DNA from: a virus
DNA: 64,000 nt
Strand: one strand, 5' to 3'
Virus record (IMG/VR): IMGVR_UViG_3300027728_000006
Location: 40,352 to 104,351 of that record
The position numbers and the translations under genes were made by a program. The first letter of the stretch is position 1. Each line of letters begins with the position of its first letter. Of this stretch, positions 39,692 to 56,761 are shown in pieces. The notes under the pieces were generated by a model that saw only the letters and a program-made list of their open reading frames with translations, had not been told where the DNA came from and searched no databases.

Positions 39692-39698
39692 TATTTAC

Positions 39699-41414
39699 TT
39701 AGCCTCCAGTTGGTTTAAAAGATTGAACGCTTAAAGAAATTGATTTACTAATTGGATTAAAAGAATATGAAGCGCTTTCAACATAAAAAGACGAATCGAT
39801 GCAAAGTTGTTTTAAAATATTTTTTAATTTATTTTTATTTTCTAAAAAATCTAAACTATTGGAACTGGCTATGGCAGAGACCGAAGAAGATTTTTTTTCA
39901 TGTATAAAATTTTGATTTTTAACTTGTTTTATTTCTCTCAAATTTGGTACAACTAGATTTGACGAAAGTTTTATTTGCTCATCAGCTTGCGTTTCAGAAC
40001 TATAATTCAAACTTTTAAAATTATAATCCTGTCCCCTTTTTCTAGAAATATCGTCAGTATAGGTAAAGGAATAATTGACAGTTCCAAGTCTATTTGATTT
40101 AGTAACAGACCAATTGTTTAAATATAAAGTATTGCTACATTGCCTATTGTGCCTTTTATTGTAAAAATTTAATATTCTCGTAGGTGTAGAATTATTAATA
40201 ATCGAGGTTTTAACACCTCCCCAAAATAAATTTGCGCTAATTTGTTTTTGCTTTGAACCCTCTAACAAATCAGATCCAATTATACTTCCAGATTCTGTAA
40301 CCGTAGTAACATCTTGATCGCTTGTTTGTAAGTCCATCTTATATTCCCAGTACGCAGTCTGATTTCCCACATATCCACTGCCATCTTGATAATCTTTAGA
40401 GAAAAATAAATCATTTGTATATGTAACAGAATAAGAAACAAAACCCGCTTTATCGGAAATGGAAAAAATTTTACTAATAGGCTTGGTAAATAAAGTTGCC
40501 GAAGTTTGTACATTTCCATGAGAATTTTTTGCATTATTGTAAATCGAATTGCACCTTGCAAAAGACGAAAGCATATCAGTCCTTGCAAAAGATATCATTT
40601 CATTCGTCTTGTTCCACTTTGCATTAAATTCAGCCGATTCAGTGATCTTTATTACCCCACCATTGTCAGACTCAAAAGAGCTGGTTCTAGATTTTAAGAA
40701 ATTATCTACGCTTCCAGACTCCAAATCATTCAATTCATAATTCTTTTCAAAAGAGCAATCTCCAGTTATTCTATTGAAATTTTCATTATAGTATGTGTTA
40801 TATGTAACTTTTTGGTTTCCCCAGTATAACGCTGCAAAATCTTCAGACTCCAGAAGGATTGCCGCAACTCCCTTTACAATATCTATATTACTTCTTGTAT
40901 CATCGCCAAATATTGCCGTCATTCCCACCCTATGAGAATAAGATTTATTTTTATAATTAGAACTGAAACTAAAAGATTCTTGAATTGAATCAGCAAAAAC
41001 CAATAGCCCCATTAAATCTTCGCTATTTTCTGGTTGATATTCACCCAACGAATCTAAAGACCCCTCTTCATATACTGTAAAAGAAGCCGAGTATTGTTTT
41101 AAACGAACGTCACTTCCCTCCGAAAAAGAAATAGAATTTACGAAACCTTTTCCAAAATTAAAATTATTTATAATTATATCATGCAGTTTAACACTCTCTT
41201 CTGGATTATCAATTAAAAAAACGCGCACTATCGCATCCTCTAATTCAGAAGTTATCCCGCTTACCCCTACTGTATTAGCCAAATTCAACAAATTTCCAGA
41301 AACCGAAATCTCCTTGGTTATTCTATAACGAAAAGATTCGCCCAAAAAGTTAAATCTTCTTGACATGCCCAGCGTGCTAGATAAACTATTTTCTGTATCA
41401 ATCCTTATTTCCAT
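39699..41414 (-). CDS. Putative distal tail/baseplate protein
   Basis: Immediately downstream of the tape measure; units resemble those of 38039-39691. Confidence 0.45.
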   Translation of the reverse strand: MEIRIDTENSLSSTLGMSRRFNFLGESFRYRITKEISVSGNLLNLANTVGVSGITSELEDAIVRVFLIDNPEESVKLHDIIINNFNFGKGFVNSISFSEGSDVRLKQYSASFTVYEEGSLDSLGEYQPENSEDLMGLLVFADSIQESFSFSSNYKNKSYSHRVGMTAIFGDDTRSNIDIVKGVAAILLESEDFAALYWGNQKVTYNTYYNENFNRITGDCSFEKNYELNDLESGSVDNFLKSRTSSFESDNGGVIKITESAEFNAKWNKTNEMISFARTDMLSSFARCNSIYNNAKNSHGNVQTSATLFTKPISKIFSISDKAGFVSYSVTYTNDLFFSKDYQDGSGYVGNQTAYWEYKMDLQTSDQDVTTVTESGSIIGSDLLEGSKQKQISANLFWGGVKTSIINNSTPTRILNFYNKRHNRQCSNTLYLNNWSVTKSNRLGTVNYSFTYTDDISRKRGQDYNFKSLNYSSETQADEQIKLSSNLVVPNLREIKQVKNQNFIHEKKSSSVSAIASSNSLDFLENKNKLKNILKQLCIDSSFYVESASYSFNPISKSISLSVQSFKPTGG

Positions 41415-41422
41415 AATAAATA

Positions 41423-44400
41423 TTAAACTACGTTAGTTGGAGGAGGAGGTTTTATGAAGCCTCCTTTTTGAAGTTCAGCTTGCATTGCGACAACCCTTTG
41501 AACCACCTCTTGAACTTGATTTTTTATACTCTCCGCCAATTGACTAACTTGTGTTTCTGAATTTTCTACGCTTGCAACCCTTCCCTGCTCTATATTTATA
41601 TTAATAGGCAAATTTATCGAATCTACATTTGTAGTATTACTAGCCTGATCTCTTGATGAGTTGCCCGCAGCCCCCCCAGAGGTTCCTCGATCTGGAACCT
41701 GCTGACCAGGTGGAACCACACCATTTGACGCACCCGAGCCACCATTTGGAGGGGCTGGTTTGGGCGGCATGAAATTCTCAATAGGCTTCATTGCCGACGG
41801 TGAGTAATAGTTTTCCGAACCTGACATGTAATATCCATTTTTTTCTGCATCTTTAATCTGAGCCGATTCAGCCTGCATTCTACTTAATTTCTTTTCGCCG
41901 CTTTCTGGAAATGGAAGCTCATCCCCCACAACAAAACTACTATTATAACCACTAACTAAAGAACTCGCTGCACCCACTCTACTTTCACTTTTAATTACCT
42001 CTGCTGATGCAGCAGCCTGCTGACTTCTCGCCTGCTGAAGTGAAACAGCAGCACTTTTTACCAATTCATAAGCATCTGATTTTTTTAAAAAATCTTCGCT
42101 TGTTATATCCATTCCCTCTGGATCCGTACCAAATTCCTTTTGAACAATATTGCCACGACCCAGCGCCACTTGAGCTCTAGCAAGACCGATATTTTTTTCA
42201 GAATAAATTTTGTCAGATTTAGCTATATAATCGGGATTTGTAGCTTCACTTTCTGTAGCTATACTCATCCTGCCCACTTTTGTTTCTAAAGCAAACTTTT
42301 GCCTATCGTTAAATAACTGCTCTGCCTCCTCTACTTTCGCTTTCGCTTTTTGTTCTTCCCCTTGCGAATCTTTAAGACCACTCTCGGCATCTTTCTTTGC
42401 ATTTTCAGCTGTGATTTTTCTTTCTGATATTTGACTGGCAATCAATCCGTCTTTTATGCCAGCAGCCATCTTAGAAACATCAAAAGATCCTTCTATAGCT
42501 TCCACCACGCTACTAAATCCATTACTACTAACTTTTGTTAATTCATTTATACCTAAAAATTGAAGCTTACTATCTCCGCTAACGCCCTTGTAAGCGTCTT
42601 GCAATTCTTTTGGTAAATTTTCAAATTCTTTTTTAGTATAGTCCTCAGTTACCCCATCAACATATTGAGAACTGTCAATCACTCCCAACTTCTGCATTAA
42701 TTGAAGATTTGAAGAAACGCTAGCCCCACCCTCCTTGTCTGTTCCAAGAGAAGACACCTGATCTCTCATACGCTTGAAAACATCTGAACCCAATGCTCCG
42801 CCAGACTGCTTTTCAAGATCGTCTATTGATTGAGCAAGCATCTGACTATAACCTTGAGAAATTGCTTGGAAATTCATATCGCCCATACTCGTAATCGGGG
42901 CTCCAGTAAATTTTGTTAATGTAGACAACGTATCTGTCAACGCTCCTAAAGAATCAAGAGCTGGCGTTTTTCCAGTATTTTTATCTATAATTTTCCCATC
43001 CTCACCTTTTACTAAATTATTTACATTGTAGCCACCGCTAACGGTTTTTGATAAAGAATCTTTAGCTTGATTAATAAGCGAGTCCTCAGCTCCAAGTAAA
43101 TTTGGAATTATCTGCTCTGCACCGCCCCCAAGATTTTGAGCCTGTGTTATTTTTTCCTTAGCTCTGTCAAATGCAAGCTGCTGAGCAAGCAAAGCCTTTT
43201 GTTGTAATTCATTTCTATTCGAAATTTTAATACCATTATTTACTGAACCCAACTCCTGAATTGTTTTATTTTTAAGCTCCTGAATTTGAGTAGCTGTAAA
43301 ACTGCCAGATGCGATCAATTTTTCTATCAGAGCATCCAATGTGCCCTTTGCTCCAGCGGTATCCCCCTGTAGGATTTGATTCATAGCTCCGCTTCCTATT
43401 AATTCATTTTTAAATTCCGTTTTTTTCAACTCGAATTCCGAAGTTGCTGATTTTATTTCTGAATCGCTCATTCCAGAAGTGGCTTTTTCATCAAGAGAAG
43501 CAGAATTAATAAGATTTCCGATAGATTCAAAAATGCTAGTAGCGCCGGTTGTCTTTGCTTGCTCTTTTTCCTGTCTTGTCGTCTGCTCTATAGAGAAAAT
43601 TCTATTATTTTCATCTCTCTTTTTGGAGACATTTGGCATATTAATCAAATCGTAAATTTCTTTACCAAAATTTCCCCTATTACTTTCTAAATCTCCAGCG
43701 AACTTAACTTTACTTAAACCTTCTTCCATTGCATATTTAAAATCTGAAAAAAGTTGGTCTACTTCTGACTTTGCAGAGGAAACTCTAGCGCCGGCTTGAT
43801 CGGCTCTCTGTCTATCCTGAGCTTTCTTTTCCGCCTCTTTCTTTTGCCTTTCTGCAATATTTTTTCTAACTTCTTCAATTTTTTCTTGTCCAGATATAAA
43901 TTTATTATTTATCGTCTGATACTCTTGGAGCCATTGTTGCAATTGATCAGGTCTATTCATAGTATCTCTAAGACTAGATAGGATTTGAAGTTCCTCCGAC
44001 GTCACTTCTCCACCACTTTTCGCATAAGATGCTTGCAAAGCATTTAAAAGTTGCCCCTTTAAATCTTGAAAGTTGTTCATATTTACCCCGCCGTCATTCT
44101 CTATCCCTAGGACTTGAATATCATTCAATTTTTTTGCAAAATCCCGAGAGCTTTCCAAAGCCTCATTCATTACGGTCGAAGGATCGTCAGTCGTTTTGGT
44201 ATAATTATATGTTTGAGCAGTTACGCTTTGAACATCTTCACTAGAAAGTTTTCTACCATACATCAGATCAAGCATTTCAGAAAGACTCTTCCCAACATAG
44301 TCAGTCTTATCGTTTTCCGTCTGTATCCCAACCATTCTATCAAAAGCTGCTGATACATTATATAATTGTTTCCCAAGATTATTTATTGTAATATCAGAAA

Positions 44401-47400
44401 AAGCTTGAGTAAAGCTTCCCATTCTCTCAAAAACGCCTTCTTGCGCATTTTCATACGTCCCACGATTACTTGCAACTACTTCTTTAGATATTTTTTGTAA
44501 AGATAAACGCTCCAATATTTCAGAATAAACCACTTGCGCATTTCCTAATCTTTCCGCTGCTACTAATTGCTCCTGATACTTAATAGGCATTGCTGTCAAT
44601 GAGTCGATATACTGCTTTTCCGCCGTGATAATATCACCCTCGGAAGAATTTGGATTAACTCTAATTTCAGCTAGTTTTTGAGAACTGTTTAAAAATTGCT
44701 GTGCCGAATCACTAAATTTTGTAAAATTTTCTGTCGCTGCTGTTACCGCTTTTTCTAATTCTGGCATTTTAGATGTAAATGCTTTTTCAATTTTTGGAAT
44801 TTCCATTAACGCAGCTATTGCTGCGCCCGCAGCTGCTCCCCAAGGTCCAGCTATCAATGCTCCAGTTCCAGCCATTCCAGCTATATTGCCCAAGCCCTCG
44901 ACGGTTGCAGCAGCCTCCCTACCGCCCTGCGTATTTTGCGGAATAAACGAAGCAATCTGTGGCGCGATGATCTGTGCAGCCATTCCAGCTTGCGAAGCTA
45001 TTGATGCTAATCTTTGTTTTTTTTCTTGGGCTATTGATTTTCTTTGCTCCGCCACCGCTTCTTTATTTGAACTTATTAAATCTTTTCTACTTCGAAGCTC
45101 TTGCTCAGCCGCGTTCTTTTTTTCACTAGCGTCCTGATCAATTCTTTTTACCTCTTTATCATAAGCATCGCTCAAAGCTGTTTTCGCGGCTTTAAGCCTT
45201 TCGTCTGCTTCCTGAATCCTTGGATCACCAATGGTAATTTGACCAGATGCCTGTTGAGCCATTAAGTCTTTATATATTTTGTCTTGGGCTTGCTTGTTTG
45301 CCGCCGCAGCCTTGAACTCAGGCGCGGATATCGCTTCTTTCAATGTATTCCTCTTATCCAATCTGTCGGTTTGCGCCTGAATCTCTTTTTCAAATGATGG
45401 AATTTCCGCAGAAGCCTTATCATTAGCCTCCGACATGTTCTTTATGGATTTTTCACCCTCTTTAATACTTTCTCCAAATTGCCTCATTTCGCCTCTTAAA
45501 AATATGGCAGAAAAAGCCACGCCTTGAAGACCAGCAATTAAAGCGGCAATTGTATTTTCATTACCATCTCCAGACGCATCAGCTGCAAAATTAGGAATGA
45601 ACCCACTCGCCGCCCCATAAGTTTTCGGATTACGCCCCTCTTTTTTAGCTCTTTTAATCCCCTGAATTCCACCGCCTGGCTCATCTCGCCTATTTGCCAC
45701 CATTAACCCCATTGGGTTATTTTTATTCTTTAAAGAACTATGCTTGTCAACATATATTTGACTCTTAGACAAGCCAGAAGATTGCTCTCTTGCTATTGCA
45801 TCATTTAAAGCATTTGAGAAATTAGGAATGAAACCAGAACTCAACCTCTTATTGAGAACTCTTGCGTTTAAAAAACCAGGCTTTCCCATTAAATCAAGGT
45901 TATCGTCAACTATTTTAGATCCTCGTTTTTGGGCTTCTACCAATTTGTCTTTTGGCTTGACGCCAAAACTAATTTTATTTACAGGAAGACCAAGTCTTGA
46001 AGAAGTTTCCCTTATTGCTTTTTCAAAAAGCGGCGGACGACTAGTCAACACATCAAACTTTTTCTTTCCAGCCTTTAACTTTTTACCTATAGGGAGAAGA
46101 TCCCTTTCTTTCAAGGATCCTAATTGCCTTATATATTCATCTTCGCCGCCTCGAATTTTTGGAATAATTGTACCATCCCAATCATACATATTTTTTCTAA
46201 CTTGATCTGCAAAATTTGGAATAAAACCACTAGCCGAGACGCCAGCCGAGCCGCCCATTGCAGAGGAAAAACGACCCTCAATTAAAGATCTGAATTTTGA
46301 ACCTTCGGCAGATCTCCTAGACACATTAGACATGCGCTTATTACTTATAATATCAAGACCTTCAAGATTTTTTACAAAAGTATTTTCATTCGCCGAAAGC
46401 GAAGCCAAATTACCCTTATTTTTAAATATTTTTTCCTGTATTCTTGTGGTAATTTCATCAACCGCCTTAGCACCAGAATATGTAGCTCCTGGGTTTTTAC
46501 CATCAAAATCCAACTGAACAGGATTAAAACCCAATGATTTAAACAACTCATTTTGATTTACATTCTTAAATATAGAAGAAGCCATTATGGATGAAACTCC
46601 AGCATATTTTCTAGGATCTGAAATGAGCCTACCAACACCCTCATTAGAATTAGCTTTTGACATTGTAGCTTTTGAATAAGCCAAATGAGAAGCCTCATGG
46701 AATAATGTATCTGGTGTTGCTCCAACTCCCAACTGTATATTTGGCTTCAAACCAGGTTTTGAAAAATTAGCCCTTCCTCTGACCCCGAATGGCAAACTGC
46801 CATCCTTTTTTATATCTAAGAAATTTGGCACAAAGCCAGAAGCGTGTTGAGTTTGAAGATCGACTCCAAGACCCCCATATTCGTCAGCCTCCACATTCCC
46901 GAAATAACTTTGTAATTTTTTTGGATCTTTTTTTAATTCATTTATTTTAGCATTAACAAAGGATGCAAATTGATCGCGGGTCATCTTTTCTATTTCCATG
47001 CCCTTGTGACCATACACTTCAAACATGGAACTCTTAGCAAGATCTGCTCTTTTAATTTGCGGGTATAAAGTTTCGGCGGAAACAGGCTCTCCATTTTTTA
47101 TTTTTTGAAGCAATCTATTCATCTGAGGCAACAATTGCCCCTTCATTTTTTTACCTTTATTTCTTTTTATTGCTTCTTCGTACAGGGCGCTACCGTACCC
47201 CTTACCCCTATATGCTTTTTCAACAGTAAGATCGCCAACATCCACATTGCCAGGCTTGTCTTCAGAGTAAGAAAATCCGCCCACTTTTTTACCGCCGAGA
47301 ATAGCATTTATACTCGAAAAGCCAAACTCGTCTTTTTTGCTTTGAGAAAATGAAAGACCAGAAGTTTTTGCAAAATTAGGAACAAAGCCGGAACTCGATA

Positions 47401-50400
47401 GCGGCACGCCATACTTATCAGCAAACATACCGCTTAAGCGTTTTAAAATCTTAGGAGGCAATGTTTGCTTTTTCTTCTTTAAATCGTCACGAGCTTCCCT
47501 AAGAGTGATAATTTTTTGCTGTATGTCTTGTGGCGTATTTTTCGTTATTCTAGATGGCAATTCAGCAAGCTGATTTTCAATTGGGGTAAGATCCTTGTCA
47601 ATCTCAGAACTGACCCTCCTCATTATCTCTTGAGCAGCCTCAGTTCTCCTCTTCATAGCTGGAGTTATTTGATTAATTGCTGGCAAGACGTGCTCCGGAA
47701 AAATTCTAGACATCGCCTCAGAATCACCAGACAACATAGCCTCCCTGGCTTTGGTTCCACTAATTCCTTCAGTTCTACTGCCAACTGAAACATCATAACC
47801 AGCCTGTTTATATTTTGTAAGATCTTTCTCTGTCTTATCAGAGCCAACAAAGGCTGTACTTCCAGGTTGTGCAGATAAGAATCTTCTCCTGCCCTCAACC
47901 GGATCAACTTCTAAATGGCGACGAATTCCCCCAGTAAAATCAGACCCAGCCTTAACTACATTAGCCCCCTCAAAAGTTTTCTGAGCCAAATATTTTCTAA
48001 CGTTTTGGTCGAAGACCAAAGTCCTCAAGGAATGCGGATCATTTTGATCTAATTTTCCACCTTCTCTTGAAATAGCAACAACAAAATCCTCAGGAGGTAT
48101 ACCCTTACCCCTTGCCATATCCATCATCTCAAGATGACCCTTAGTAGAAGGAGAAAAAGCGCCATAAGCTAATCCCAAGCGTTTTTTTTCTACAATTGGC
48201 AGATCTTTTTCCTTTTTTCTTTTAAGTCCAAAATTGGGATTAATTCCCATAATTCTTGTTTTTTCTGAACCCAAAGTGTCAAGAGCAACAGCCTCTATAT
48301 AGGCGCTGTCTAGTCCAGCAGATGTCGAAGTTCCAGCCTCTCTTCCAAAATTAGTTTTAGATGTCCCCTCCGAGATTTGAGAATCTCTTAAACTTCTTCT
48401 GCGCTTTATTTCTTCTTGCTCCGCTGGAGTAGAGGATGAGAGTATCATCAATCTATCTAATTCTGACCAATATCCTTTATCAATTGCAGCAGCGGTGCCA
48501 ACCAGCGAAGCCCTAGTATCCACAATCTCGTCAACCTTGTCAATATCAGATGGAATAATTATCGGAATTCTTTGCGTTTTCCTAAATTTTGAGTTATCAG
48601 CTCTTTCAGAATTTTTTCCACCAAGCATCATTGAACTTTTTCCAGCTCCAGGAACGCCAAAAACGCCTGTAAATTTCTTAAGAGATCCAGCCTTCCTGGA
48701 CTTTTTAGCTAATTCTCCTAGGTATTTGTGATAACCAGCAACGCCGCCGCTTATACCTAAACTGGCTATTTGCTCTTCAACTATCGCGGTATATTTTGGA
48801 TCGCTCAATACATCCCCGTCAAGATATCCTACCCTACGATCAGCAAAATTAGGAATATAGCCAGAAGCTGAAGACGCAAGACCATGAACATCTACCCACT
48901 TCTTTAATGTACTTTTTAAATTATCTGGAGTTCTTGATATTTTTGCTTCATACTGACCTGGAGCATTATGGAAAAACTTTTTAAGTTCAGGTGTTGGAGC
49001 TGGAAAATCTATTCTTTGAGTTTGACTTACAGCTGGAGCATTAAACGATTTTCTTAAAGCAGTTTCGAAAACCGTTCCGGCAGCAGAACCAACAGAGCCA
49101 GCGTTGTCCAATGAAGAAGCGTCAGTTATCTGCTCTTTTCCTCCAAAAGTTTTAATTATGTTATTAGTAGCGCCAACTAAAGCATCCCCCACTACTCCCT
49201 TAATTCCATATCTTTGCAAATTAGTTCCAGAAGTATCCAGTCCAGCCGTTGCTATTTTAGCATCAAACAAATTATTACCAGCCTCTAATGAAACATTAGC
49301 CGAATCAAGACCCTGATTGCCGCCATGGACCATTGTATATCTATCTGACAAATCGAGCTTTTTAACATCAAGGTTTTTCTTCTTTGCAGTTTTTTCTTTA
49401 TCAACGGCGCGCATTGTTGTACCGCCGCCATACATCGCCTTAAATTTGCTACCCATCGACGCAAAATTAGGAACAAAGCCAGAAGCTTTACTTTCAAATA
49501 AATTTAATCCAACCCCTAACGCGGATAGATCTACCGTATCAGAATTGCTGTTTCCCTTATATGAAGGATTAGCTTTTCTTCCAAGATATGTAAGAGCCTT
49601 AGCATAAATAACATCGTCTTTTACTGGTTTTTTAGTAACTTTAGATTCTACAAGTTGCTGCTTCGATAATTTATCTTTATATGAAAAATCTACCCCAAAC
49701 TTATTTTTCAATTTAACAGGAGTAATGCCCATGTTTTTTAACATTATTTCTGTATCTATCTCTCCCAAAGCCCCCTTAACGTTACTTACATTGCCAATTT
49801 TGTTACCTGTAGCCAGCTTAGACTGATCGAAACTACCAGGTAAATAATTACCAATAGGCACACCTTTATATTTTAAGGATGAGAGATCTTTTTTTTGCTC
49901 TAAAGAGCTATTTATTTTTATTTCTGCTATCTTATCATATGTTGAAGTATTATAAGGTAATTTAATTCTATCAACTGATACATTTTCCGAATAATAATCA
50001 GTCTTGCTATTCTTTTTTCCACGAATTCCAAAATCATAAAGTTTTTTCAAATCGCCGCCACTCTTAACGCTGGACAAGCTCTCTACTTTGTTTTTAGCAA
50101 AATTAGGAATATACCCACCAGCAGCATATTGAGTATTTTCACCAAAACCATTTGGAGGACGAACTACGGTAGCCTTTTTACCAGCAGCATTAGTAAATGT
50201 CTTTACATCTTCTTTATTATTAACAAAAGATTTAAACGACTTTCCATTGCCGTCATGTATGGTTGTTTTTTTAGCCTTGCCAGCCCTGTAGCCATGCTCT
50301 CTAGCGCCAGCATTTTCCATCGCTTGACCAACATTTCTATCGGACGCAAAATTTGGAACAAATCCAGATGAAAAAGTTTTTTTTCCAGTAGCGCTTGTTA

Positions 50401-51997
50401 AAGGTACGCCGCTAGCTCCAATACTTACTCCAGCTCTACCTAAATTGGCGGCTATTGTTTTGCTAATTCTCTCCTGCTCTCTCATCACATTCGATTGAGC
50501 GGTCAAATAATCAAGAAGTTGTTTTTCAGCTTGAACGGTCGTCATTTTGCCGCTCAGTATTTTTTCTGTAAATACGCTATTCTTTTGAAGAATTGAAAGA
50601 ACACCTTGCTCTAATGCAGCTTGCTGCTTGGTAGCCTCATTTCTTCCAAGCAACTCTTTAGCAGATCCAGCGGCAAATTTTGCTAAATTTACAAATAATT
50701 TAGTTAAAACTGCAACAGCTAAAACAGTGCCAGGACCGCCAATAAAATTCGAAATGCCCTTAAAAAATCCCTCTATAAATTTACCACCTTGAGTTTCAGT
50801 ATCTATTTTATTAAAAGATTCAATTATACCGTTGAAACTTGAAAGAAAACCCTTAGCATTTGGTTCAAAAACCAATGATCCAATTTTACTAGCAGCCTCC
50901 TCCAAATTTGAAACCGCCTGAGAAGACAAAGCCGACAAAGTTTTATTCAACTCTTGGTTTCTTTTTATAGCTTGATCAGTAGAGCTCAAAGAGGTTTCTA
51001 GCGCTCTATCATATATGCTATACTCTTTGCCCAAATCAGAAAGAGCTGCCTTCAAGATGTTAATTTGAAAAACCCCACCTACCTGCTCTGCAACATAAGA
51101 TTTTTGTTTAGCTCCAAGAGTATCATAAGTTGAGGCTAATTGTTTTAGAAGATCTATTGCGCTTTGTCCCTCTGACGTATCAACCCCTAATGATCCTAAA
51201 AGGTCTTGAACCTTACCTCTTTGCAGTCTTGTAAAAATAGTTTTAAGTGAGTTACCAATTACGGCACCGCCTCTAGCAGTAGTTTGCTGAGCTGCCGTGA
51301 CTATAGAAATGAGTTCATCCAATGAAACTCCAGCATCTTGAGCCGTAGAACCAACTCTGCTAATAGCGTTAGCCAGGTCTGCTGAACTAACGGCAAACGC
51401 GGCATCGACATTGGCTAATTTATTCACAACTTGTACCGCGTCTAAAGCTGAACCAGAGAAAGAGTTGAGAGTAGCCGTCAAAGCTTCAACACTCCTCACC
51501 GTATCAAGTCCACTTAATCTGGCTAAAATTAAAGCGGCATTAGTTCTCTTAAGAGTTTCTTCAACTCCCAAGCCCTGCCTAGCCAGTTCGGTTGCCGCCT
51601 CAGCAACAGAAGAAAAACTTTGAGCTGTATTTTTAGCTATATCAAATAATGATCCGCCAAATTTTTGCAAACTTGAAGAAGACAAATTAAGTAATACGTT
51701 GATATCTTGAAGCTTTTTTTCAACTTCTATAGTAGAAGTAATCAGCGAAGACAACGCCTTCTCAACGGCAAATATAGCTCCAGCTGATGCTCCGAAGGCT
51801 ATAACGCGAGCATTTGAAGCTTCTAAACTCTTATTAAACTCACTTACTTGAGCAGTTATTCTTCCAAGCGCCTGAGAGCTTTTTTTCGTATTAATCTGAG
51901 AAAGCTCTATTGTTTTTAGAGCTTTCGCTATATCTTTTTCCATTTGGCGCGTATTTGCGCTAACGGAAATTGTTGCACTTGTTAAACCTGTAGCCAT
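41423..51997 (-). CDS. Tail tape-measure protein (TP901-type N-terminus) carrying an internal array of enzymatic cargo domains
   Basis: TMP core (ELARQG, VDAAFAVSSADLA, GAVIGNSLKTIFTR); helical C-terminal part with GPWGAAAG; located downstream of the tail tube and chaperones. Confidence 0.92.
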   Translation of the reverse strand: MATGLTSATISVSANTRQMEKDIAKALKTIELSQINTKKSSQALGRITAQVSEFNKSLEASNARVIAFGASAGAIFAVEKALSSLITSTIEVEKKLQDINVLLNLSSSSLQKFGGSLFDIAKNTAQSFSSVAEAATELARQGLGVEETLKRTNAALILARLSGLDTVRSVEALTATLNSFSGSALDAVQVVNKLANVDAAFAVSSADLANAISRVGSTAQDAGVSLDELISIVTAAQQTTARGGAVIGNSLKTIFTRLQRGKVQDLLGSLGVDTSEGQSAIDLLKQLASTYDTLGAKQKSYVAEQVGGVFQINILKAALSDLGKEYSIYDRALETSLSSTDQAIKRNQELNKTLSALSSQAVSNLEEAASKIGSLVFEPNAKGFLSSFNGIIESFNKIDTETQGGKFIEGFFKGISNFIGGPGTVLAVAVLTKLFVNLAKFAAGSAKELLGRNEATKQQAALEQGVLSILQKNSVFTEKILSGKMTTVQAEKQLLDYLTAQSNVMREQERISKTIAANLGRAGVSIGASGVPLTSATGKKTFSSGFVPNFASDRNVGQAMENAGAREHGYRAGKAKKTTIHDGNGKSFKSFVNNKEDVKTFTNAAGKKATVVRPPNGFGENTQYAAGGYIPNFAKNKVESLSSVKSGGDLKKLYDFGIRGKKNSKTDYYSENVSVDRIKLPYNTSTYDKIAEIKINSSLEQKKDLSSLKYKGVPIGNYLPGSFDQSKLATGNKIGNVSNVKGALGEIDTEIMLKNMGITPVKLKNKFGVDFSYKDKLSKQQLVESKVTKKPVKDDVIYAKALTYLGRKANPSYKGNSNSDTVDLSALGVGLNLFESKASGFVPNFASMGSKFKAMYGGGTTMRAVDKEKTAKKKNLDVKKLDLSDRYTMVHGGNQGLDSANVSLEAGNNLFDAKIATAGLDTSGTNLQRYGIKGVVGDALVGATNNIIKTFGGKEQITDASSLDNAGSVGSAAGTVFETALRKSFNAPAVSQTQRIDFPAPTPELKKFFHNAPGQYEAKISRTPDNLKSTLKKWVDVHGLASSASGYIPNFADRRVGYLDGDVLSDPKYTAIVEEQIASLGISGGVAGYHKYLGELAKKSRKAGSLKKFTGVFGVPGAGKSSMMLGGKNSERADNSKFRKTQRIPIIIPSDIDKVDEIVDTRASLVGTAAAIDKGYWSELDRLMILSSSTPAEQEEIKRRRSLRDSQISEGTSKTNFGREAGTSTSAGLDSAYIEAVALDTLGSEKTRIMGINPNFGLKRKKEKDLPIVEKKRLGLAYGAFSPSTKGHLEMMDMARGKGIPPEDFVVAISREGGKLDQNDPHSLRTLVFDQNVRKYLAQKTFEGANVVKAGSDFTGGIRRHLEVDPVEGRRRFLSAQPGSTAFVGSDKTEKDLTKYKQAGYDVSVGSRTEGISGTKAREAMLSGDSEAMSRIFPEHVLPAINQITPAMKRRTEAAQEIMRRVSSEIDKDLTPIENQLAELPSRITKNTPQDIQQKIITLREARDDLKKKKQTLPPKILKRLSGMFADKYGVPLSSSGFVPNFAKTSGLSFSQSKKDEFGFSSINAILGGKKVGGFSYSEDKPGNVDVGDLTVEKAYRGKGYGSALYEEAIKRNKGKKMKGQLLPQMNRLLQKIKNGEPVSAETLYPQIKRADLAKSSMFEVYGHKGMEIEKMTRDQFASFVNAKINELKKDPKKLQSYFGNVEADEYGGLGVDLQTQHASGFVPNFLDIKKDGSLPFGVRGRANFSKPGLKPNIQLGVGATPDTLFHEASHLAYSKATMSKANSNEGVGRLISDPRKYAGVSSIMASSIFKNVNQNELFKSLGFNPVQLDFDGKNPGATYSGAKAVDEITTRIQEKIFKNKGNLASLSANENTFVKNLEGLDIISNKRMSNVSRRSAEGSKFRSLIEGRFSSAMGGSAGVSASGFIPNFADQVRKNMYDWDGTIIPKIRGGEDEYIRQLGSLKERDLLPIGKKLKAGKKKFDVLTSRPPLFEKAIRETSSRLGLPVNKISFGVKPKDKLVEAQKRGSKIVDDNLDLMGKPGFLNARVLNKRLSSGFIPNFSNALNDAIAREQSSGLSKSQIYVDKHSSLKNKNNPMGLMVANRRDEPGGGIQGIKRAKKEGRNPKTYGAASGFIPNFAADASGDGNENTIAALIAGLQGVAFSAIFLRGEMRQFGESIKEGEKSIKNMSEANDKASAEIPSFEKEIQAQTDRLDKRNTLKEAISAPEFKAAAANKQAQDKIYKDLMAQQASGQITIGDPRIQEADERLKAAKTALSDAYDKEVKRIDQDASEKKNAAEQELRSRKDLISSNKEAVAEQRKSIAQEKKQRLASIASQAGMAAQIIAPQIASFIPQNTQGGREAAATVEGLGNIAGMAGTGALIAGPWGAAAGAAIAALMEIPKIEKAFTSKMPELEKAVTAATENFTKFSDSAQQFLNSSQKLAEIRVNPNSSEGDIITAEKQYIDSLTAMPIKYQEQLVAAERLGNAQVVYSEILERLSLQKISKEVVASNRGTYENAQEGVFERMGSFTQAFSDITINNLGKQLYNVSAAFDRMVGIQTENDKTDYVGKSLSEMLDLMYGRKLSSEDVQSVTAQTYNYTKTTDDPSTVMNEALESSRDFAKKLNDIQVLGIENDGGVNMNNFQDLKGQLLNALQASYAKSGGEVTSEELQILSSLRDTMNRPDQLQQWLQEYQTINNKFISGQEKIEEVRKNIAERQKKEAEKKAQDRQRADQAGARVSSAKSEVDQLFSDFKYAMEEGLSKVKFAGDLESNRGNFGKEIYDLINMPNVSKKRDENNRIFSIEQTTRQEKEQAKTTGATSIFESIGNLINSASLDEKATSGMSDSEIKSATSEFELKKTEFKNELIGSGAMNQILQGDTAGAKGTLDALIEKLIASGSFTATQIQELKNKTIQELGSVNNGIKISNRNELQQKALLAQQLAFDRAKEKITQAQNLGGGAEQIIPNLLGAEDSLINQAKDSLSKTVSGGYNVNNLVKGEDGKIIDKNTGKTPALDSLGALTDTLSTLTKFTGAPITSMGDMNFQAISQGYSQMLAQSIDDLEKQSGGALGSDVFKRMRDQVSSLGTDKEGGASVSSNLQLMQKLGVIDSSQYVDGVTEDYTKKEFENLPKELQDAYKGVSGDSKLQFLGINELTKVSSNGFSSVVEAIEGSFDVSKMAAGIKDGLIASQISERKITAENAKKDAESGLKDSQGEEQKAKAKVEEAEQLFNDRQKFALETKVGRMSIATESEATNPDYIAKSDKIYSEKNIGLARAQVALGRGNIVQKEFGTDPEGMDITSEDFLKKSDAYELVKSAAVSLQQARSQQAAASAEVIKSESRVGAASSLVSGYNSSFVVGDELPFPESGEKKLSRMQAESAQIKDAEKNGYYMSGSENYYSPSAMKPIENFMPPKPAPPNGGSGASNGVVPPGQQVPDRGTSGGAAGNSSRDQASNTTNVDSINLPININIEQGRVASVENSETQVSQLAESIKNQVQEVVQRVVAMQAELQKGGFIKPPPPTNVV
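45842..46207 (-). other. TMP cassette 7: HAD phosphatase
   Basis: Motif I YDWDGTI, motif II LTSR, motif III K, motif IV VDDN. Confidence 0.75.
46235..46816 (-). other. TMP cassette 6: zincin metallopeptidase-like domain
   Basis: TLFHEASHL, with a downstream DE helix (VDEITTR). Confidence 0.65.
46844..47368 (-). other. TMP cassette 5: GNAT acetyltransferase
   Basis: VGDLTVEKAYRGKGYGSALY (acetyl-CoA-binding motif A). Confidence 0.8.
47396..48841 (-). other. TMP cassette 4: P-loop kinase + HxGH nucleotidyltransferase
   Basis: GVPGAGKSS; then GAFSPSTKGH, VGSD and ISGTKAR. Confidence 0.75.
48869..49459 (-). other. TMP cassette 3: second PD-(D/E)XK nuclease-like domain
   Basis: AGTVFE ... RIDF ... 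YEAK. Confidence 0.55.
49487..50095 (-). other. TMP cassette 2: PD-(D/E)XK nuclease-like domain
   Basis: KGALGE ... FGVDF ... LVESK. Confidence 0.65.
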
Positions 51998-52058: not shown

Positions 52059-53105
52059 TTATTTCTTTGAATTTTTGGTATCCGTAGCTCTTATAGCATC
52101 ATAAATATTCAATTCTCCGCCTTTATTTTGAGCAGCGTCCAGTAAGTTTGAATCATCAAGCCGAGAATTCATCCCGATCTCTTCGTAGTCAGACTTTTTT
52201 GCCCCCACTAATGAGGTTATTCTACCGCTTCTTTCACCGCGACTGTTCTTTTGGTTGGGAGACTTATCTAAAGCTTTCCTTGTTTTTGATGAAGAAGAAC
52301 CACTTTCACACCAATCTACTAATTTTGAAGGGTCACAGAGTATTTCATCTGATATCTTTTCAGTTGTGTTATTTATCATTTTTCTATACATCGAAGCGTA
52401 AGAAAAAATATCTATTTGATAAGTAGTTAGTTGAGTTATTGGTTTTCCATAAAAGTTATATATTGGGAAATCTGAGCCAGTTAATAAAATTAAATTTTGA
52501 AAAAACCCTGTAGCAGCCACATATTTCAAATTATCTATTTTTAATAAATCTAATATTTTAGATATCTGAATCCACACCTCGTCATATACCTCATCCTCTA
52601 GGCAATCAAAGTAATCATTATTGTCAGAAACTGAAATAGAAAACGAAACATCTTTAAAAAGCAAATTATTCAAATAATAACGATGATAGTATTTTTCAGC
52701 GTATTCTTCCGCAGTAGTTGGTATAATACTTTTTCTTTCAGTTAAAATCTTATTGACTTTTCTTATTTCTTCGTCTATAGTTTTTTGAACACCATCCCTT
52801 TGAGATGGTAACATTAATTTTGATTTTGTTTTTATTAAATTTTCAATAAAGACGCGAGATTGGGCAATTTGGCTCTCTCTTTCCTTAGACCACCATTTTT
52901 TTTCTATATAAAATTTTAAATATTCCTCTTCAGTTTTTACACCATTTTTCTTAGCAATATCCAAACCTTCGCTATAGCGGTTTTTTAAAACTATTTTATC
53001 AGCATAATTAACATGCTTGAAAAAACATTTTTCACTAGATAGCCTTATCTCATCATGCCCCAAACAGATGCTGTGGTAAATCTTTTGGACCTCGTCATAG
53101 TCCAT
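52059..53105 (-). CDS. Putative tail assembly chaperone
   Basis: Immediately upstream of the TMP; helical. Confidence 0.5.
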   Translation of the reverse strand: MDYDEVQKIYHSICLGHDEIRLSSEKCFFKHVNYADKIVLKNRYSEGLDIAKKNGVKTEEEYLKFYIEKKWWSKERESQIAQSRVFIENLIKTKSKLMLPSQRDGVQKTIDEEIRKVNKILTERKSIIPTTAEEYAEKYYHRYYLNNLLFKDVSFSISVSDNNDYFDCLEDEVYDEVWIQISKILDLLKIDNLKYVAATGFFQNLILLTGSDFPIYNFYGKPITQLTTYQIDIFSYASMYRKMINNTTEKISDEILCDPSKLVDWCESGSSSSKTRKALDKSPNQKNSRGERSGRITSLVGAKKSDYEEIGMNSRLDDSNLLDAAQNKGGELNIYDAIRATDTKNSKK

Positions 53106-53122
53106 ATTTTATATAAAGTTAC

Positions 53123-53926
53123 TTACAAGTTTTCAACTGAGACATTCGAAGAATCCTGCTTCTCCTCTACAGCGGGCTCATCAATTTCTTTTTTAGCCTC
53201 ACTTAGACTTTCTTCCTTCTCGGTCTCCCGCTGCTCTTCTTCAATTCTCTTTAAGAATTCATTGTCTAAAAGCTCAAACTCATAAAAATTATTAGCACTA
53301 CCCAAATACCAAATTGTTACAAGATAATTAATTCTAGAAAAAACTTTATTAAGAAAATCGTTAGTTTCGACTACTTCGTCATAATAATCTAACTTAGAAT
53401 CTATGTCGCCGCCATTTAATAAAGCCTTGTGATCACCAATTGAGTCCACTTCTACTCCCAAATTTGCCGCCCACCAAACTATTGACTTATTGCGAGCCTT
53501 AGCCTCCGCAGTATACTCAAAGGCATTAATTTGTGAAAGCTCTAAATCCTGCATCTGCTTTCTCAATAAAACTGTCTCCGCCTGCAATTCTAACAATTTA
53601 CTCTTCTCTTCCTCACTTCTTTCGCTTTCTTTCTTTGCAGAAAGTTTTTCAATTTTTTCACGAGTCTCTGACAATTCAACAAACACTGCAGAATATTCTT
53701 TTTTTTCAGCTTCTGAAATTGTTCCGCCTTGATCTTTAAACATTTTATCCCAAAGAATTTTTGGCAATATTCCAGATCCTATAAATTGAGATAATTTTGA
53801 GGCATAATAAAGCTCGCCCTCTTCTTTTAATTTTCTATTTGGTTTTAAAATCGCAAATTTACGACTTACTCCAGAATCATTCTTTGCTTCAAATGAATAC
53901 AGATATTTTTTATTTTTATCACTCAT
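53123..53926 (-). CDS. Putative tail assembly chaperone (coiled-coil)
   Basis: Between tail tube and TMP; shares a TAE..A motif with the next gene. Confidence 0.5.
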   Translation of the reverse strand: MSDKNKKYLYSFEAKNDSGVSRKFAILKPNRKLKEEGELYYASKLSQFIGSGILPKILWDKMFKDQGGTISEAEKKEYSAVFVELSETREKIEKLSAKKESERSEEEKSKLLELQAETVLLRKQMQDLELSQINAFEYTAEAKARNKSIVWWAANLGVEVDSIGDHKALLNGGDIDSKLDYYDEVVETNDFLNKVFSRINYLVTIWYLGSANNFYEFELLDNEFLKRIEEEQRETEKEESLSEAKKEIDEPAVEEKQDSSNVSVENL

Positions 53927-53943
53927 AATTTTTCCTTTTTCCT

Positions 53944-53976
53944 TTTATTTTACCGTTTATTTTACCGTTTATTTTA
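53944..53976. repeat. 12-bp tandem repeat tttattttaccg (about 2.7 copies), intergenic
   Basis: Read directly from the sequence. Confidence 0.7.
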
Positions 53977-54032
53977 TTTTTTTAAATAAATTTTATTTCA
54001 AAATTACAGATAGCGCTCAAAAGAATGTGCAT

Positions 54033-54266
54033 TTAAACTATTTCCATGCTTGAAAAAAGAGAAGAAATTTGTTCTTCAGAATTTCTAACGGCGGCATTTC
54101 CCCTATCAAGAATTTCTTTTCTTTTAAGTGAATATTCTTGTTCGTCAATTAAGCCTCTCTTTAATAATTCTTCAACGTAAACTAGGTGAGAAATGAATAA
54201 GAACTTCATTTCTTTTTCTATCTTTTGTGACAAGAACTTGTCAAAATTAAATTCAAATTTTTGCAT
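54033..54266 (-). CDS. Hypothetical protein
   Basis: ORF preceded by GTGTAATA; RKEILDRGN motif. Confidence 0.55.
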   Translation of the reverse strand: MQKFEFNFDKFLSQKIEKEMKFLFISHLVYVEELLKRGLIDEQEYSLKRKEILDRGNAAVRNSEEQISSLFSSMEIV

Positions 54267-54322
54267 AATCCTTTTAAACCTTACTTTTAATTTCCTTTTT
54301 TCCTAAATGCTATTACACAATA

Positions 54323-54356
54323 AATAAAAAAAAGAGACTCCGAAGAGTCTCTTTTT
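54323..54356 (-). terminator. Rho-independent terminator with C(UUCG)G loop
   Basis: AAAAAGAGACTC-TTCG-GAGTCTCTTTTTTTT on the minus strand, downstream of the tail-tube operon. Confidence 0.9.
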
Positions 54357-54380
54357 AATAATATATAATATTATAAGGTA

Positions 54381-54686
54381 TTAATTAAATAAGTTTTTTA
54401 CTGAATGAGTTACTTTAGATGATTGACCAGGAACAGGAATCGAAGCAGTAATTGCAGGCTCCTGCTCTAATTTAACAGGCTCAACTTTTGGCTGGACTTC
54501 AACTTTTGGCTGGACTTCAACTTTTGGTTTACCATTCAATTTAAAATTTTCAGAAATATAATCGAAGTCATGACTTGAAAGCTCCACGCTACTGCCTTGA
54601 ACTTTTCCTCTTTTTTTAACCTCTTCAACGTACCCAGCGGCTCTCTCACGAGCCGCCGAATAAATTGTTTTTAGTGGAATTTTCAT
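54381..54686 (-). CDS. Hypothetical protein with KVEVQP duplication
   Basis: ORF with an 18-bp tandem duplication. Confidence 0.55.
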   Translation of the reverse strand: MKIPLKTIYSAARERAAGYVEEVKKRGKVQGSSVELSSHDFDYISENFKLNGKPKVEVQPKVEVQPKVEPVKLEQEPAITASIPVPGQSSKVTHSVKNLFN

Positions 54687-54705
54687 TTTTTAAAAATGAA
54701 TTTTA

Positions 54706-55809
54706 TTAGGGGGCTACCGGATAACTTCCAGACATGAAAACGCCCTTGGTCGAATCTTCAGGTCCGCCGATACTTACTTCATACTCAAGAGACACAGAAG
54801 CATTATCACCGATTGAAGTAGTCAAGCTTTCTGACAATAATTTTGCACCTTTCAATTGAGCAATAAGTGCCGGAGCGCCATTCCCCGAACAGTCATTCTT
54901 TTTCATTGTTATCGTGAGCGTATACACATCAGTCTCGCAAAGAAGATTAGCCAAGTTAAAGTCAGCCAATTCACCCATCTGAGCTTCAACAGAAAGTGAG
55001 GCTGTCACAGGGAAATCAATTTCACGACTAAATGGGAATCTGCTACCTAATTTCTCAATTGGAGTTCTACTCAAGTCAGTTGACAAAGTAAAACTTTGAA
55101 TTTTAATATCATTTGCCTCAAAGCCTTTGACCTGGTCATTACTTAAAGTAAAAGTAATATCTCCAGGTCTTAAAACTGTAACTTGAGTATCATTGTCATC
55201 TCCTGAAGATTGAGGTATTGTGAAAGATATTCCTGTGATCTTCGTACCAGCAGCAGGATCAATAGCTGGAATATGATTTACACCAGTGATGTCAGAGTAA
55301 ACTGCAAAATTGAGAGCCTCAAAGTCGGCACTTGCTGTTGGCACGTCTCCAACTGAAGCCTCCAATGAATAAGATGTTAAGAATGCATTTCCTAAACCGA
55401 ATACGCCAGTTTTGTCGCCGACATATCCCACATTATCGCTACCCTCCTTGGCAACAGTTAAAAAGTAATTCTTTTCATCAGTCTTTTTATTTAAGATACC
55501 CGATAAAATTGATACTGGCAGTCCACTTAATCCGCAAACACTAAGTCCAACATAGCTTTCATTACTTCCATCAGTTGGGTACCATGAAGTACTCATGTTA
55601 ACAGTTGGAGCCTCAACTTCGATACGGTCGATAGCAGCTAATTGACCATATTGGTTAATATCGGTGAAGTTTCTTGAAAAGTCTGAGTCCCAGCTTTGAA
55701 CGCGAGTTAGCTGAGCTATGTCGCCAACTCCAGTATGAGAGCCTGAGCGGGCTGAATTTTGTCCAGCATATAAAGCTAAACTTTGATAAATGATACGATT
55801 TCTTGACAT
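54706..55809 (-). CDS. Major tail tube protein
   Basis: MSRNRIIYQS, RVQS, INQYGQLA and IQSFTLS..LSRTPIEKLGS two-fold beta repeat; lies between the neck genes and the chaperones. Confidence 0.7.
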   Translation of the reverse strand: MSRNRIIYQSLALYAGQNSARSGSHTGVGDIAQLTRVQSWDSDFSRNFTDINQYGQLAAIDRIEVEAPTVNMSTSWYPTDGSNESYVGLSVCGLSGLPVSILSGILNKKTDEKNYFLTVAKEGSDNVGYVGDKTGVFGLGNAFLTSYSLEASVGDVPTASADFEALNFAVYSDITGVNHIPAIDPAAGTKITGISFTIPQSSGDDNDTQVTVLRPGDITFTLSNDQVKGFEANDIKIQSFTLSTDLSRTPIEKLGSRFPFSREIDFPVTASLSVEAQMGELADFNLANLLCETDVYTLTITMKKNDCSGNGAPALIAQLKGAKLLSESLTTSIGDNASVSLEYEVSIGGPEDSTKGVFMSGSYPVAP

Positions 55810-55911
55810 ATTTTTATATTATTGTTGATGTTTTTAGTTTTATTCCTATTAAAAAGAAAAAAAAATAAATTATGCAAATTATTACATTTAAAAATTATCG
55901 TTGGGAACAAT

Positions 55912-56757: not shown

Positions 56758-56761
56758 ATTT

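Follow-up and report, generated by a model that had tools for sequence, protein, structure and literature searches.

The window, a 64,000-nucleotide stretch of a viral IMG/VR record (IMGVR_UViG_3300027728_000006), contains on its minus strand, which also encodes all features described below, a single uninterrupted ORF (P0001; 41423..51997) for a protein of 3524 aa. Profile searches confirm the first-pass annotation of this protein as a tape measure protein (TMP) of a phage tail and assign it to the TP901 type: TIGR01760 (E 5e-31) and PF10145 match over their cut-offs, together with eight TMP PHROGs. The TIGR01760 match defines an N-terminal domain (aa 77-402; 50792..51769) whose homologues include TMPs of SPbeta-like phages and of Bacillus phages, with at most 30% identity to those of Stahl, Slash and SPbeta. 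It is followed by a hydrophobic segment (aa 418-436; 50690..50746; Kyte-Doolittle 19-aa mean 1.78) that is present at aa ~415-443 in all 6 TMPs examined. A second hydrophobic segment (aa 2149-2167; 45497..45553; mean 1.99) starts 11 aa past the last residue of the ninth copy of the motif described below, and Kyte-Doolittle analysis gives a third at aa 2380-2398. The C-terminal part (aa 2168-3524; 41423..45496), presumably the ruler, contains no motif in our scan. Between the first hydrophobic segment and this long C-terminal part, the protein consists of autonomous modules strung together.

The modules are separated by a nine-residue delimiter, (A/S)(S/G)G(F/Y)(V/I)PNF(A). A pattern scan for its core, G[FY][IV]PNF, recovered the nine previously noted copies, with exactly the same outer limits: SSGFVPNFA (copy 1, first core residue G545; 50345..50371), AGGYIPNFA (copy 2, G628; 50096..50122), ASGFVPNFA (copy 3, G840; 49460..49486), ASGYIPNFA (copy 4, G1046; 48842..48868), SSGFVPNFA (copy 5, G1537; 47369..47395), ASGFVPNFL (copy 6, G1721; 46817..46843), ASGFIPNFA (copy 7, G1924; 46208..46234), SSGFIPNFS (copy 8, G2055; 45815..45841) and ASGFIPNFA (copy 9, G2132; 45584..45610). 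The eight segments between them span 68-482 aa. From the composition of the protein, 1.4e-4 copies would be expected by chance. Outside this TMP, the motif is absent from all six frames of the window and from the whole 104-kb record, in which the reversed pattern likewise scored zero.

Codons vary from copy to copy within the gene, and synonymous usage, counted over 408 motif copies from 91 TMPs, is the same as in the background (entropy 1.85 versus 1.82 for Gly and 0.80 versus 0.75 for Asn). Selection therefore keeps the motif as a peptide and not as DNA, bearing out the earlier suggestion of peptide-level conservation. The invariance of G, P and N is built into the search pattern; Asn is present in the great majority of copies, and the next residue is Phe in 95%. 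Two positions ahead of F/Y, 74% of copies have S or G, and most of the remainder have K, A, N or D. Past a weakly conserved Ala at -3 and an Ala at +6, conservation tails off. Decayed junctions occur in genes that are retained, with GF[IV]PSF and related N-to-S forms accounting for approximately 35 copies and GFLPK found in P0032 and P0053.

The array opens with module C (74 aa; 50123..50344), the first module in most relatives, whose family of 43 has invariant E, G, G, G, N, E and G (alignment A8). Module a (203 aa; 49487..50095) is a candidate PD-(D/E)XK nuclease with conserved GE.DT ... G.DF ... E.KV in a family of only 3 members; a profile search gave no match. Module B (197 aa; 48869..49459) is a near-universal core module (132 family members) with G128, D151 and K173 invariant and E132 near-invariant. 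Its AF2 model (pLDDT 85.7, leading 24 aa disordered) predicts a confident but unmatched fold, since fold comparison returned nothing significant (best Z 3.4). Module I (482 aa; 47396..48841) combines P-loop NTPase and HIGH-type nucleotidyltransferase signatures, with GVPGAGKS, T.GH and RT.GISGT kept at at least 90% in 14 members; its Pfam matches are PF01467 (E 0.003 within this genome, below cut-off) and PF16581 (E 0.029). A search for standalone homologues of B and I found none. Module D (175 aa; 46844..47368) is a GNAT acetyltransferase by PF00583 (24.9 bits, cut-off 20.7); RG.G is conserved in 38 members, and the copy of one relative matches GNAT with E 7e-8. Module F (194 aa; 46235..46816) is a candidate zinc peptidase with HE..H conserved in 21 members and no Pfam match, including to PF13699. 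Module M (122 aa; 45842..46207) carries a DxDGT signature and is a candidate HAD-type phosphatase, with YDWDGTIIP, T.RP, K and DD conserved in 9 members; PF13419 gave no match. The last module in nearly all relatives, A (68 aa; 45611..45814), has invariant R, E, G and E. For this module AF2 predicts a helix-strand-strand-helix core (pLDDT 75-86) between two motifs that each score below 50, and neither fold nor PDB searches gave a match. The models thus place the motif in probably disordered linkers beside folded modules.

Pfam searches over 61 module representatives returned only GNAT and weak NTPase/nucleotidyltransferase matches. Only GNAT is thus assigned by a family test; for the kinase/nucleotidyltransferase, HExxH and DxDGT modules, conserved signatures suggest putative enzymes. 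The enzyme labels of the first-pass annotation hence stand for GNAT and remain candidate assignments, from signature residues, for the others. Of its two PD-(D/E)XK nucleases, a has a conserved signature and B a conserved E/D/K set, but B has no significant fold match.

The motif is the marker of a large family of uncultured phages. Module A is carried by 1219 protein clusters from uncultured phages, and the TMPs contain 2-12 motif copies in 80 close homologues and 0-14 in 133 further TMPs; in 95 loci the motif is limited to the TMP ORF, with one exception. We distinguished 93 module families, variable in order and copy number (D-I-F versus I-D-F; H before B or after D; A-b-A). P0001 and its relatives P0002, P0003 and P0004 are near-identical as far as a motif and unrelated immediately past PNFA, with swap breakpoints at copy 4; copy 5 is a breakpoint as well. 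Among 450 ends of homology blocks, 36% lie within 5 aa of a motif, compared to 5% expected, and starts cluster at -5 to -1 and ends at +5 to +9 relative to it. The clade of P0001 has seen the insertion, loss, duplication or reordering of as many as a dozen or so additional modules, with breakpoints inside the motif. The proposals that the motif lies at domain borders and serves as a junction for cassette swapping are therefore upheld, and comparison of relatives shows the variable cargo between fixed flanks that was anticipated.

Most relatives possess only a core of small C, B and small A, each already flanked by the motif. The motif thus predates the cargo expansion and did not arise as an effector delimiter. 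Small modules flanked by it also recur in distant TMPs, 900-1260 aa apart along the ruler (P0088, P0090, L064 and L068). Its age and its occurrence along distant rulers are no less compatible with a role in structure or assembly. The view of the TMP as an injectable effector magazine is only partly supported; cleavage, unfolding or threading, and injection are steps that we infer. One TMP of the set, P0071, bears an SLT domain.

A literature search found no published description of a motif-delimited module array in a TMP, in line with the first-pass annotation, which knew of none. Polyvalent proteins and MARTX toxins are similar to the array, which differs from both in being part of a TMP. Polyvalent proteins, encoded by phages and conjugative elements, contain many conflict-type domains including GNAT, are mosaic and have their genes among virion genes (Iyer et al. 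2017, PMC5512222). According to that proposal, they accompany the entering DNA, and a HExxH-type metallopeptidase embedded in them cuts them into units (PMC5512222). The multi-domain polypeptide, GNAT, mosaicism and virion-gene setting are shared with our array, but that paper never mentions tape measure proteins and its proteins have no conserved delimiter peptide. Unlike polyvalent proteins, the array lies inside a TMP, its HExxH module is optional (21 of 80 relatives) and most modules match no described family.

MARTX toxins have mosaic, exchangeable effector domains between conserved flanks that are freed by linker cleavage after delivery. Their own inositol-phosphate-activated cysteine protease cuts after Leu in otherwise unconserved linkers. 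The likeness, an exchangeable domain array between conserved flanks, would be one of analogy and not of membership, as our array shows no such protease domain, has a fixed 9-mer delimiter and is carried by a phage tail protein. In viral polyproteins (potyvirus NIa sites, retroviral Gag-Pol), a short conserved peptide at every junction is cut by one protease, and HIV-1 protease sites of the x-N-F/Y type may resemble (V/I)-P-N-F; these are eukaryotic rather than bacterial systems, and the array has no known protease. Enzymes embedded in TMPs include the Rpf-like motifs of mycobacteriophages, the T5 Pb2 peptidase and SPbeta YomI/CwlP. Like our array, these are catalytic domains within a TMP that is ejected at infection; the cases known comprise one or two wall-degrading domains whose site of action is extracytoplasmic, and neither a repeated delimiter nor cassette turnover is known for them, whereas the array family reaches 13 modules (14 motifs), and the cofactors needed are of a cytoplasmic type. 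Actinobacterial CIS effectors such as Sle1 have a TMP-like scaffold packaged in a tail-like tube, and their functional module differs among relatives and is experimentally exchangeable (PMC13277306, PMC11126660). Scaffold and exchangeable module are thus similar, but Sle1 has a single C-terminal module, no delimiter motif and a bacterial nanomachine instead of a phage tail ruler.

Tentatively, we favour the view that the TMP is a polyprotein, ejected from the tail, in which the motif signals processing. It would be a linear signal for a single conserved factor that acts in trans, with a site-specific endoprotease as the likeliest candidate, and the modules would be cut free of the membrane-inserting ruler and then act separately; cutting might take place during tail maturation or once the TMP has been ejected in front of the DNA. 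Because one reader would serve all junctions, any motif-flanked module would automatically be compatible, which would explain a frozen motif combined with free cargo turnover. The need for acetyl-CoA (GNAT) and NTPs (P-loop and nucleotidyltransferase parts) suggests that the recognisable modules act in a cytoplasm. This architecture suggests that phages could plug new enzymes into a protein ejected into the host. Counting against this view, the HExxH module is optional, the N-to-S and GFLPK junctions persist without gene loss, and most modules have no recognisable enzyme family. We identified no protease for the motif; the scanned tail-module neighbours (33271-41414 and 52059-59240) gave no Pfam match, and the subset also scanned with PHROGs gave none there either. 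Two genes upstream of the TMP are conserved across 76 loci and, by position, would be tail assembly chaperones. The adjacent one (348 aa; 52059..53105; alignment A5) has no PDB, Pfam or PHROG match; the second (267 aa; 53123..53926), with 8 residues invariant in alignment A6, gave nothing informative in searches, and neither shows a protease signature or match.

These two genes are central to a doubtful but possible alternative, in which the uncut motif docks by strand addition onto the upstream chaperones or the tube lumen, so that the tube is built over the non-helical module stretch and three TMP chains are kept in register. Chaperones are established to bind the TMP in lambda (G/GT). One upstream gene retains 8 invariant and 12 near-invariant residues at approximately 22% identity, a fixity unusual for a chaperone that fits an invariant ligand; the motif is disordered and accessible in the AF2 model, its F-x-P-x-F would yield one hydrophobic face, and its age and presence along distant rulers agree with such a role. 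However, the chaperone label is based on position, with no sequence or fold match, and most TMPs confine the motif to one region, which rules it out as the general chaperone-binding determinant along the ruler. Docking would also leave unexplained how 20-55 kDa folded modules fit three abreast in a lumen of approximately 4 nm.

It is unlikely that C, B, A and their motifs are ancestral hinges or nodes between ruler segments and the extra modules tolerated passengers, which may add to tail length or have a function in the cell that produces the phage. The near-universal core versus clade-specific cargo, the recurrence of motif-flanked small modules along distant rulers, the absence of enzyme-like fold matches for B and A and of standalone homologues for B and I all favour such joints. 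Inert passengers are, however, not expected to retain catalytic-type signatures, and Walker A, T.GH/RT.GISGT, RG.G, HE..H and DWDGT are kept at at least 90% under selection; GNAT is a bona fide family match, and modules A, B and C have invariant acidic and basic residues that point to chemistry or to specific binding.

We regard as quite improbable that the motif hooks a host chaperone or PPIase, e.g., the parvulin-type periplasmic SurA, as the unfolded TMP exits the tail, with the TMP ratcheted out and each module helped to refold. HK97 infection needs the TMP plus the periplasmic chaperone FkpA, the invariant Pro suits a PPIase site, and a conserved host reader would account for invariance across very divergent phages. 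The phage-display peptide WEYIPNV, a ligand of the P1 parvulin domain in E. coli SurA (Kd 1-14 uM; PMC11401910), has Y-I-P-N in common with GYIPNF copies. Four residues are weak evidence, though, and the SurA consensus Ar-X-Ar-X-Pro is absent, the residue two before F/Y not being aromatic. The periplasm would also lack the acetyl-CoA and NTPs that the recognisable modules need. Only 4 MAG contigs match, from four different phyla, and do not identify a host.

Self-cleavage, in which the invariant Asn cyclises and the N-F bond breaks without a protease, has precedents at Asn-X sites of nodavirus and tetravirus capsids and in FlhB/YscU, and agrees with the near-constant Asn-Phe and the unsuccessful search for a protease gene among the neighbours. 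We consider it highly improbable: the flanks outside the 9 residues are unconserved, which means that the site does not bring a catalytic environment along, the motif is predicted to be disordered rather than held in a fold, and the N-to-S variants persist. Finally, that the motif's 27 nt are a recombination scar, a microhomology for module exchange encoding a functionless peptide, is scarcely credible and was already disfavoured: breakpoints do fall in the motif and copies within one gene have long identical runs in common (e.g., TTCCTAATTTTGC), but synonymous sites are as free as background, the opposite of what DNA-level selection would give, and G, P and N are fixed though the flanking modules are only 15-40% identical.

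The tape measure protein (TMP) gene is a single open frame (window 41423-51997, minus strand) that encodes 3524 aa. TIGR01760 matches aa 77-402 with 107.9 bits (cut-off 28.8), PF10145 scores 89.1 bits (cut-off 33.2) and eight TMP PHROGs match the protein (best E 5.5e-46); by these profiles it is a TP901-family phage tail tape measure protein. Its N-terminal 540 aa share at most 30% identity with the TMPs of cultured Bacillus siphophages. The protein contains nine matches to G[FY][IV]PNF (aa 545, 628, 840, 1046, 1537, 1721, 1924, 2055 and 2132), compared to 1.4e-4 copies expected from composition. Neither the six frames of the window nor the rest of the 104-kb IMG/VR record contains a further copy, and the reversed pattern, searched in that record as a control, gives 0 copies. 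Expectation and control together exclude chance or low complexity as the origin of the motif. The first-pass annotation had counted the same nine copies, and the outermost ones coincide exactly with the limits it gave for the array, 45584-50371. The motif logo reads (A)(A/S)(S/G)G(F/Y)(V/I)PNF(A), with flanking conservation dropping off quickly on both sides, and the array as a whole is flanked by hydrophobic segments at aa 418-436 and aa 2149-2167.

The nine copies bound eight modules, in the order C-a-B-I-D-F-M-A. Close relatives are near-identical as far as a motif, unrelated right after PNFA, and near-identical again from the next motif onwards. When the query TMP (P0001) is compared with about 200 other TMPs, 36% of the 450 homology-block ends are no more than 5 aa from a motif, against an expected 5%, and 51% are no more than 10 aa away, against an expected 10%. 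Block starts accumulate immediately in front of the motif Gly, and block ends immediately behind the motif Ala. The motif copies thus lie at domain borders, as had been proposed, and are also swap junctions, the 27 nt of the motif evidently serving as the crossover point. Synonymous codon use at each motif position (408 copies) does not differ from that in the rest of these genes, which indicates that selection acts on the motif peptide and bears out the earlier reading that conservation is at the peptide level.

Searching with the array yielded 80 TMP homologues with 2-12 motif copies. When these were split at the motif and the resulting fragments clustered, approximately 58 module families emerged, rising to 93 families among 772 pieces once 95 fetched loci were added. 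Both content and order vary between relatives, in agreement with the variable cargo predicted by the first-pass annotation. In the homologue P0002, which is otherwise 95% identical to the query, a module T takes the place of I, and other relatives differ by insertion and deletion, by duplication (A-b-A, D-T-D) or by reordering (I on either side of D; H before B or after D). With a single exception, the motif of the 95 loci is confined to the TMP frame. Scanning IMG/VR with the pattern gave more than 599 matching places, 396 of which encode a relative of module A. In an exhaustive profile search, module A turned up in 1219 clusters (50% identity); almost all of the proteins in these clusters are 1500-5300 aa long, and they carry as many as 14 motifs. 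The array is absent from cultured phages, as megablast and tblastn against 50,697 phage records gave no match, and among bacterial genomes only four MAG contigs matched, labelled with four discordant phyla. The G+C content of the locus in relatives ranges from 30 to 47%. Standalone homologues were not found for module I, and for module B only fragments on short contigs were retrieved. Three loci (L013, L014 and L019) stand out by a TMP frame of just 1687 aa that contains two motifs but lacks an A module; a shorter TMP, a frameshift or a different genetic code may account for it.

In most relatives the array consists of just three modules, a small first one (C-type), B, and a small last one, A, and the motif flanks each of them. 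Since the modules of such minimal relatives are already motif-flanked, the motif predates the cargo expansion of the query's clade. This modifies the original picture: the variable cargo stands, but the motif is older than the cargo. In distant TMPs (L064, L065, L068 and L075; P0088 and P0090), small motif-flanked modules of 74-91 aa are spaced 770-1300 aa apart along the presumed ruler, with spacings of 900-1260 aa in some of these proteins, and one of the modules sits near the C-terminus. The recurrence of small modules along the ruler suggests that the motif also punctuates long helical segments. Modules A and C each have invariant acidic residues; homology between the two is not supported (hhalign probability 0.4%, with only a short G...N..E pattern in common), and their earlier BLAST overlap is explained by the motifs that both carry. 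In one homologue (P0071), an SLT lytic transglycosylase domain, a classical kind of TMP-borne enzyme, occupies aa 1903-1992, in the C-terminal third of the TMP and outside the array.

To characterise the modules we used AlphaFold2 (AF2) models and profile searches. Motif-A-motif, modelled on a 72-sequence alignment, has a helix-strand-strand-helix core with a pLDDT of 75-86, while both motifs are below 50. Module B, modelled on 56 sequences, reaches a pLDDT of 85.7 behind a 24-residue disordered lead. The models therefore suggest that the modules are autonomous in folding and that the motif is a linear element of flexible linkers. Collectively, the data show the motif to be a peptide-level signal at every module junction, disordered, a site of exchange and restricted to the TMP.

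Neither model has a significant structural neighbour (best Z 2.9 for A and 3.4 for B). The array had been described as containing self-contained enzymes, including two PD-(D/E)XK nucleases. For the second of these, module B, the expected residues are in place, with E132 near-invariant and D151 and K173 invariant in 56 sequences and the PD-(D/E)XK order kept, but the match of the model to Cfr10I and Bse634I (Z 3.0, 98-101 residues aligned, rmsd 4.5-4.8) is at noise level and tied with unrelated rows. Foldseek gave nothing at E 0.001 or better for this model, and an ESM Atlas search was uninformative (score 0.76). Module D is a GNAT acetyltransferase: Acetyltransf_1 scores 24.9 bits against a Pfam gathering cut-off of 20.7, a relative's copy matches GNAT at E 7e-8, and an RG.G conserved in 38 members corresponds to the R/Q-x-x-G-x-G/A acetyl-CoA motif. 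The remaining assignments hold at the level of signatures, with profiles sub-threshold or absent. Module I keeps a Walker A motif together with T.GH and RT.GISGT, which we take to be the two signatures of HIGH-type nucleotidyltransferases; PF01467 scores 14.2 bits (cut-off 21), PF16581 is sub-threshold (E 0.029-0.004), and PF05636 and PF13671 have no match in the query genome. Its nucleotidyltransferase half (window 48065-48172, minus strand, aa ~1276-1311; and aa 1407-1468) gives weak matches to CTP_transf_like, to PF16581, a cytidyltransferase-related C-terminal region, and to PDB 3gmi (UPF0348, MJ0951). Module F, missing from 59 of 80 relatives, keeps HE..H without a profile match, including to PF13699, and module M (9 members), the proposed HAD phosphatase, conserves DWDGT, T.RP, K and DD with no match to PF13419. 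A Pfam scan of 61 module representatives brought up no families beyond GNAT and weak NTPase/NTase ones. PDB sequence and profile searches with alignments A3, A4, A5 and A6 (the last two of upstream proteins) and with the whole array returned nothing usable, and PADLOC gave no match. Given that profile support beyond GNAT is weak or absent and the folds are unmatched, the label "enzyme cassettes" is established for one module and likely for three or four.

What reads the motif? We infer that one conserved reader recognises it and tentatively favour a site-specific protease, which would make the TMP a polyprotein. A single reader of many sites would explain how a frozen motif coexists with module turnover, the recognisable modules need cytoplasmic cofactors, and polyvalent proteins give a precedent for processing. 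In addition, three folded modules of 20-55 kDa would not fit side by side in a tube lumen of approximately 4 nm, so they would have to be stored unfolded or be separated. The protease reading is weakened by the finding that no protease was found near the TMP gene and that the HExxH module is optional. More speculatively, the motif may be a dedicated processing signal and the TMP family a plug-and-play effector polyprotein, whose motif-flanked modules are loaded, ejected and cut free. Every module with the 9-mer on both sides would then travel in the tail, leave it before the DNA does and be released in the new host, where the released modules could act as counter-defence or takeover enzymes, delivered before any phage gene expression.

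The presence of the motif in minimal TMPs and along the ruler also fits an assembly or structural role. One such role, for which we see a smaller chance, is docking of the motif to the upstream chaperone-like proteins or to the tube. Gene order around the TMP is conserved in 76 loci, and the neighbours match no known family. The two genes directly upstream (window 53123-53926 and 52059-53105, both minus strand) are kept in all 76 and by position look like tail chaperones. The product of 53123-53926 has 8 invariant residues at approximately 22% identity; neither upstream protein has a protease signature or a family or PDB match. The predicted complex of this protein (alignment A6) with a 50-aa motif-bearing linker scores 0.02, which is evidence neither way. 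In several loci, the 52059-53105 gene has no obvious start or overlaps the 53123-53926 gene, like G/GT-type frameshifted tail chaperones. A rather improbable alternative is that the motifs are structural joints, with the extra modules as passengers. A hook for a host chaperone is unlikely: Y-I-P-N is common to the GYIPNF copies of the motif and the SurA-binding peptide WEYIPNV (PMC11401910), but the published SurA P1 consensus Ar-X-Ar-X-Pro does not fit, with S or G, not an aromatic residue, two positions before F/Y in 74% of motif copies.

Self-cleavage at Asn is very improbable. Approximately 35 motif copies have Ser in place of Asn, and the B-D junction has decayed in three homologues (P0032 aa ~990-1000, P0053 aa ~1010 and P0038 aa ~1020) to GFLPK or GFMPK with a 4-residue deletion, or to GFIPSF; both observations argue against an obligatory Asn chemistry. 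This decay fuses two modules, showing that single junctions can be lost. A pure recombination scar, the least probable reading, is disfavoured by the background-like codon use at the motif. Three known signals were also rejected: a signal-peptidase-type site (small residues at -3 and -1 agree with one, but no hydrophobic region precedes the motif), an OMP beta-signal (wrong aromatic spacing) and an N-glycosylation sequon (N-F-A instead of N-x-S/T).

Polyvalent proteins combine two to fifteen conflict-related domains per phage or plasmid polypeptide and are proposed to be self-processed by an embedded zincin-like MPTase, in a paper that does not mention TMPs (Iyer et al. 2017, PMC5512222). The array has eight modules in one polypeptide, with GNAT confirmed, others recognised by signatures, and the folds of B and A unmatched. 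It would work as a polyvalent protein or a MARTX toxin does, but its carrier is a TMP and its delimiter a fixed 9-mer; in general Pfam scans, the TMP showed no MARTX-type cysteine protease domain. The nearest examples of a TMP as carrier, TMP-related CIS effectors (PMC13277306), have one module and no delimiter, and the motif strings were found in no phage paper searched. Even if read most conservatively, the motif-punctuated array represents a rule of TMP architecture that is widespread, clearly delimited, so far undescribed and easy to test. If the motif is a processing signal, this TMP family would be a phage analogue of MARTX toxins, equipped with a sorting and cleavage code of its own. 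If the modules are delivered, they would form a pre-made, quickly exchangeable enzyme kit within the virion protein that enters before the genome, with relevance for how phages get through the first minutes of exposure to host defences, and the 93 or more families, mostly without known relative, would be a catalogue of candidate early-acting effectors. The peptide tag indexes module families and is searchable in any metagenome. Whether cleavage code, docking code or chaperone hook, it is a clean experimental handle and might let chosen proteins be loaded into phage tails.

Further from the TMP gene, window 54706-55809 (minus strand) belongs to a family of ~370-aa proteins with 123 members in 77 loci. 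Members lie on either side of the TMP gene, so that the tape measure is flanked by paralogues, and the family may represent a major tail or decoration protein; neither Pfam nor PHROG gives a match. Within the phage structural region, window 61625-62452 (minus strand) is a sulfotransferase-family gene (PF13469, E 8e-18). The product of window 62516-63916 (minus strand) combines a LamG/concanavalin-like domain with BspA-type leucine-rich repeats (PF13306, E 3e-65), making it a candidate host-binding or decoration protein.
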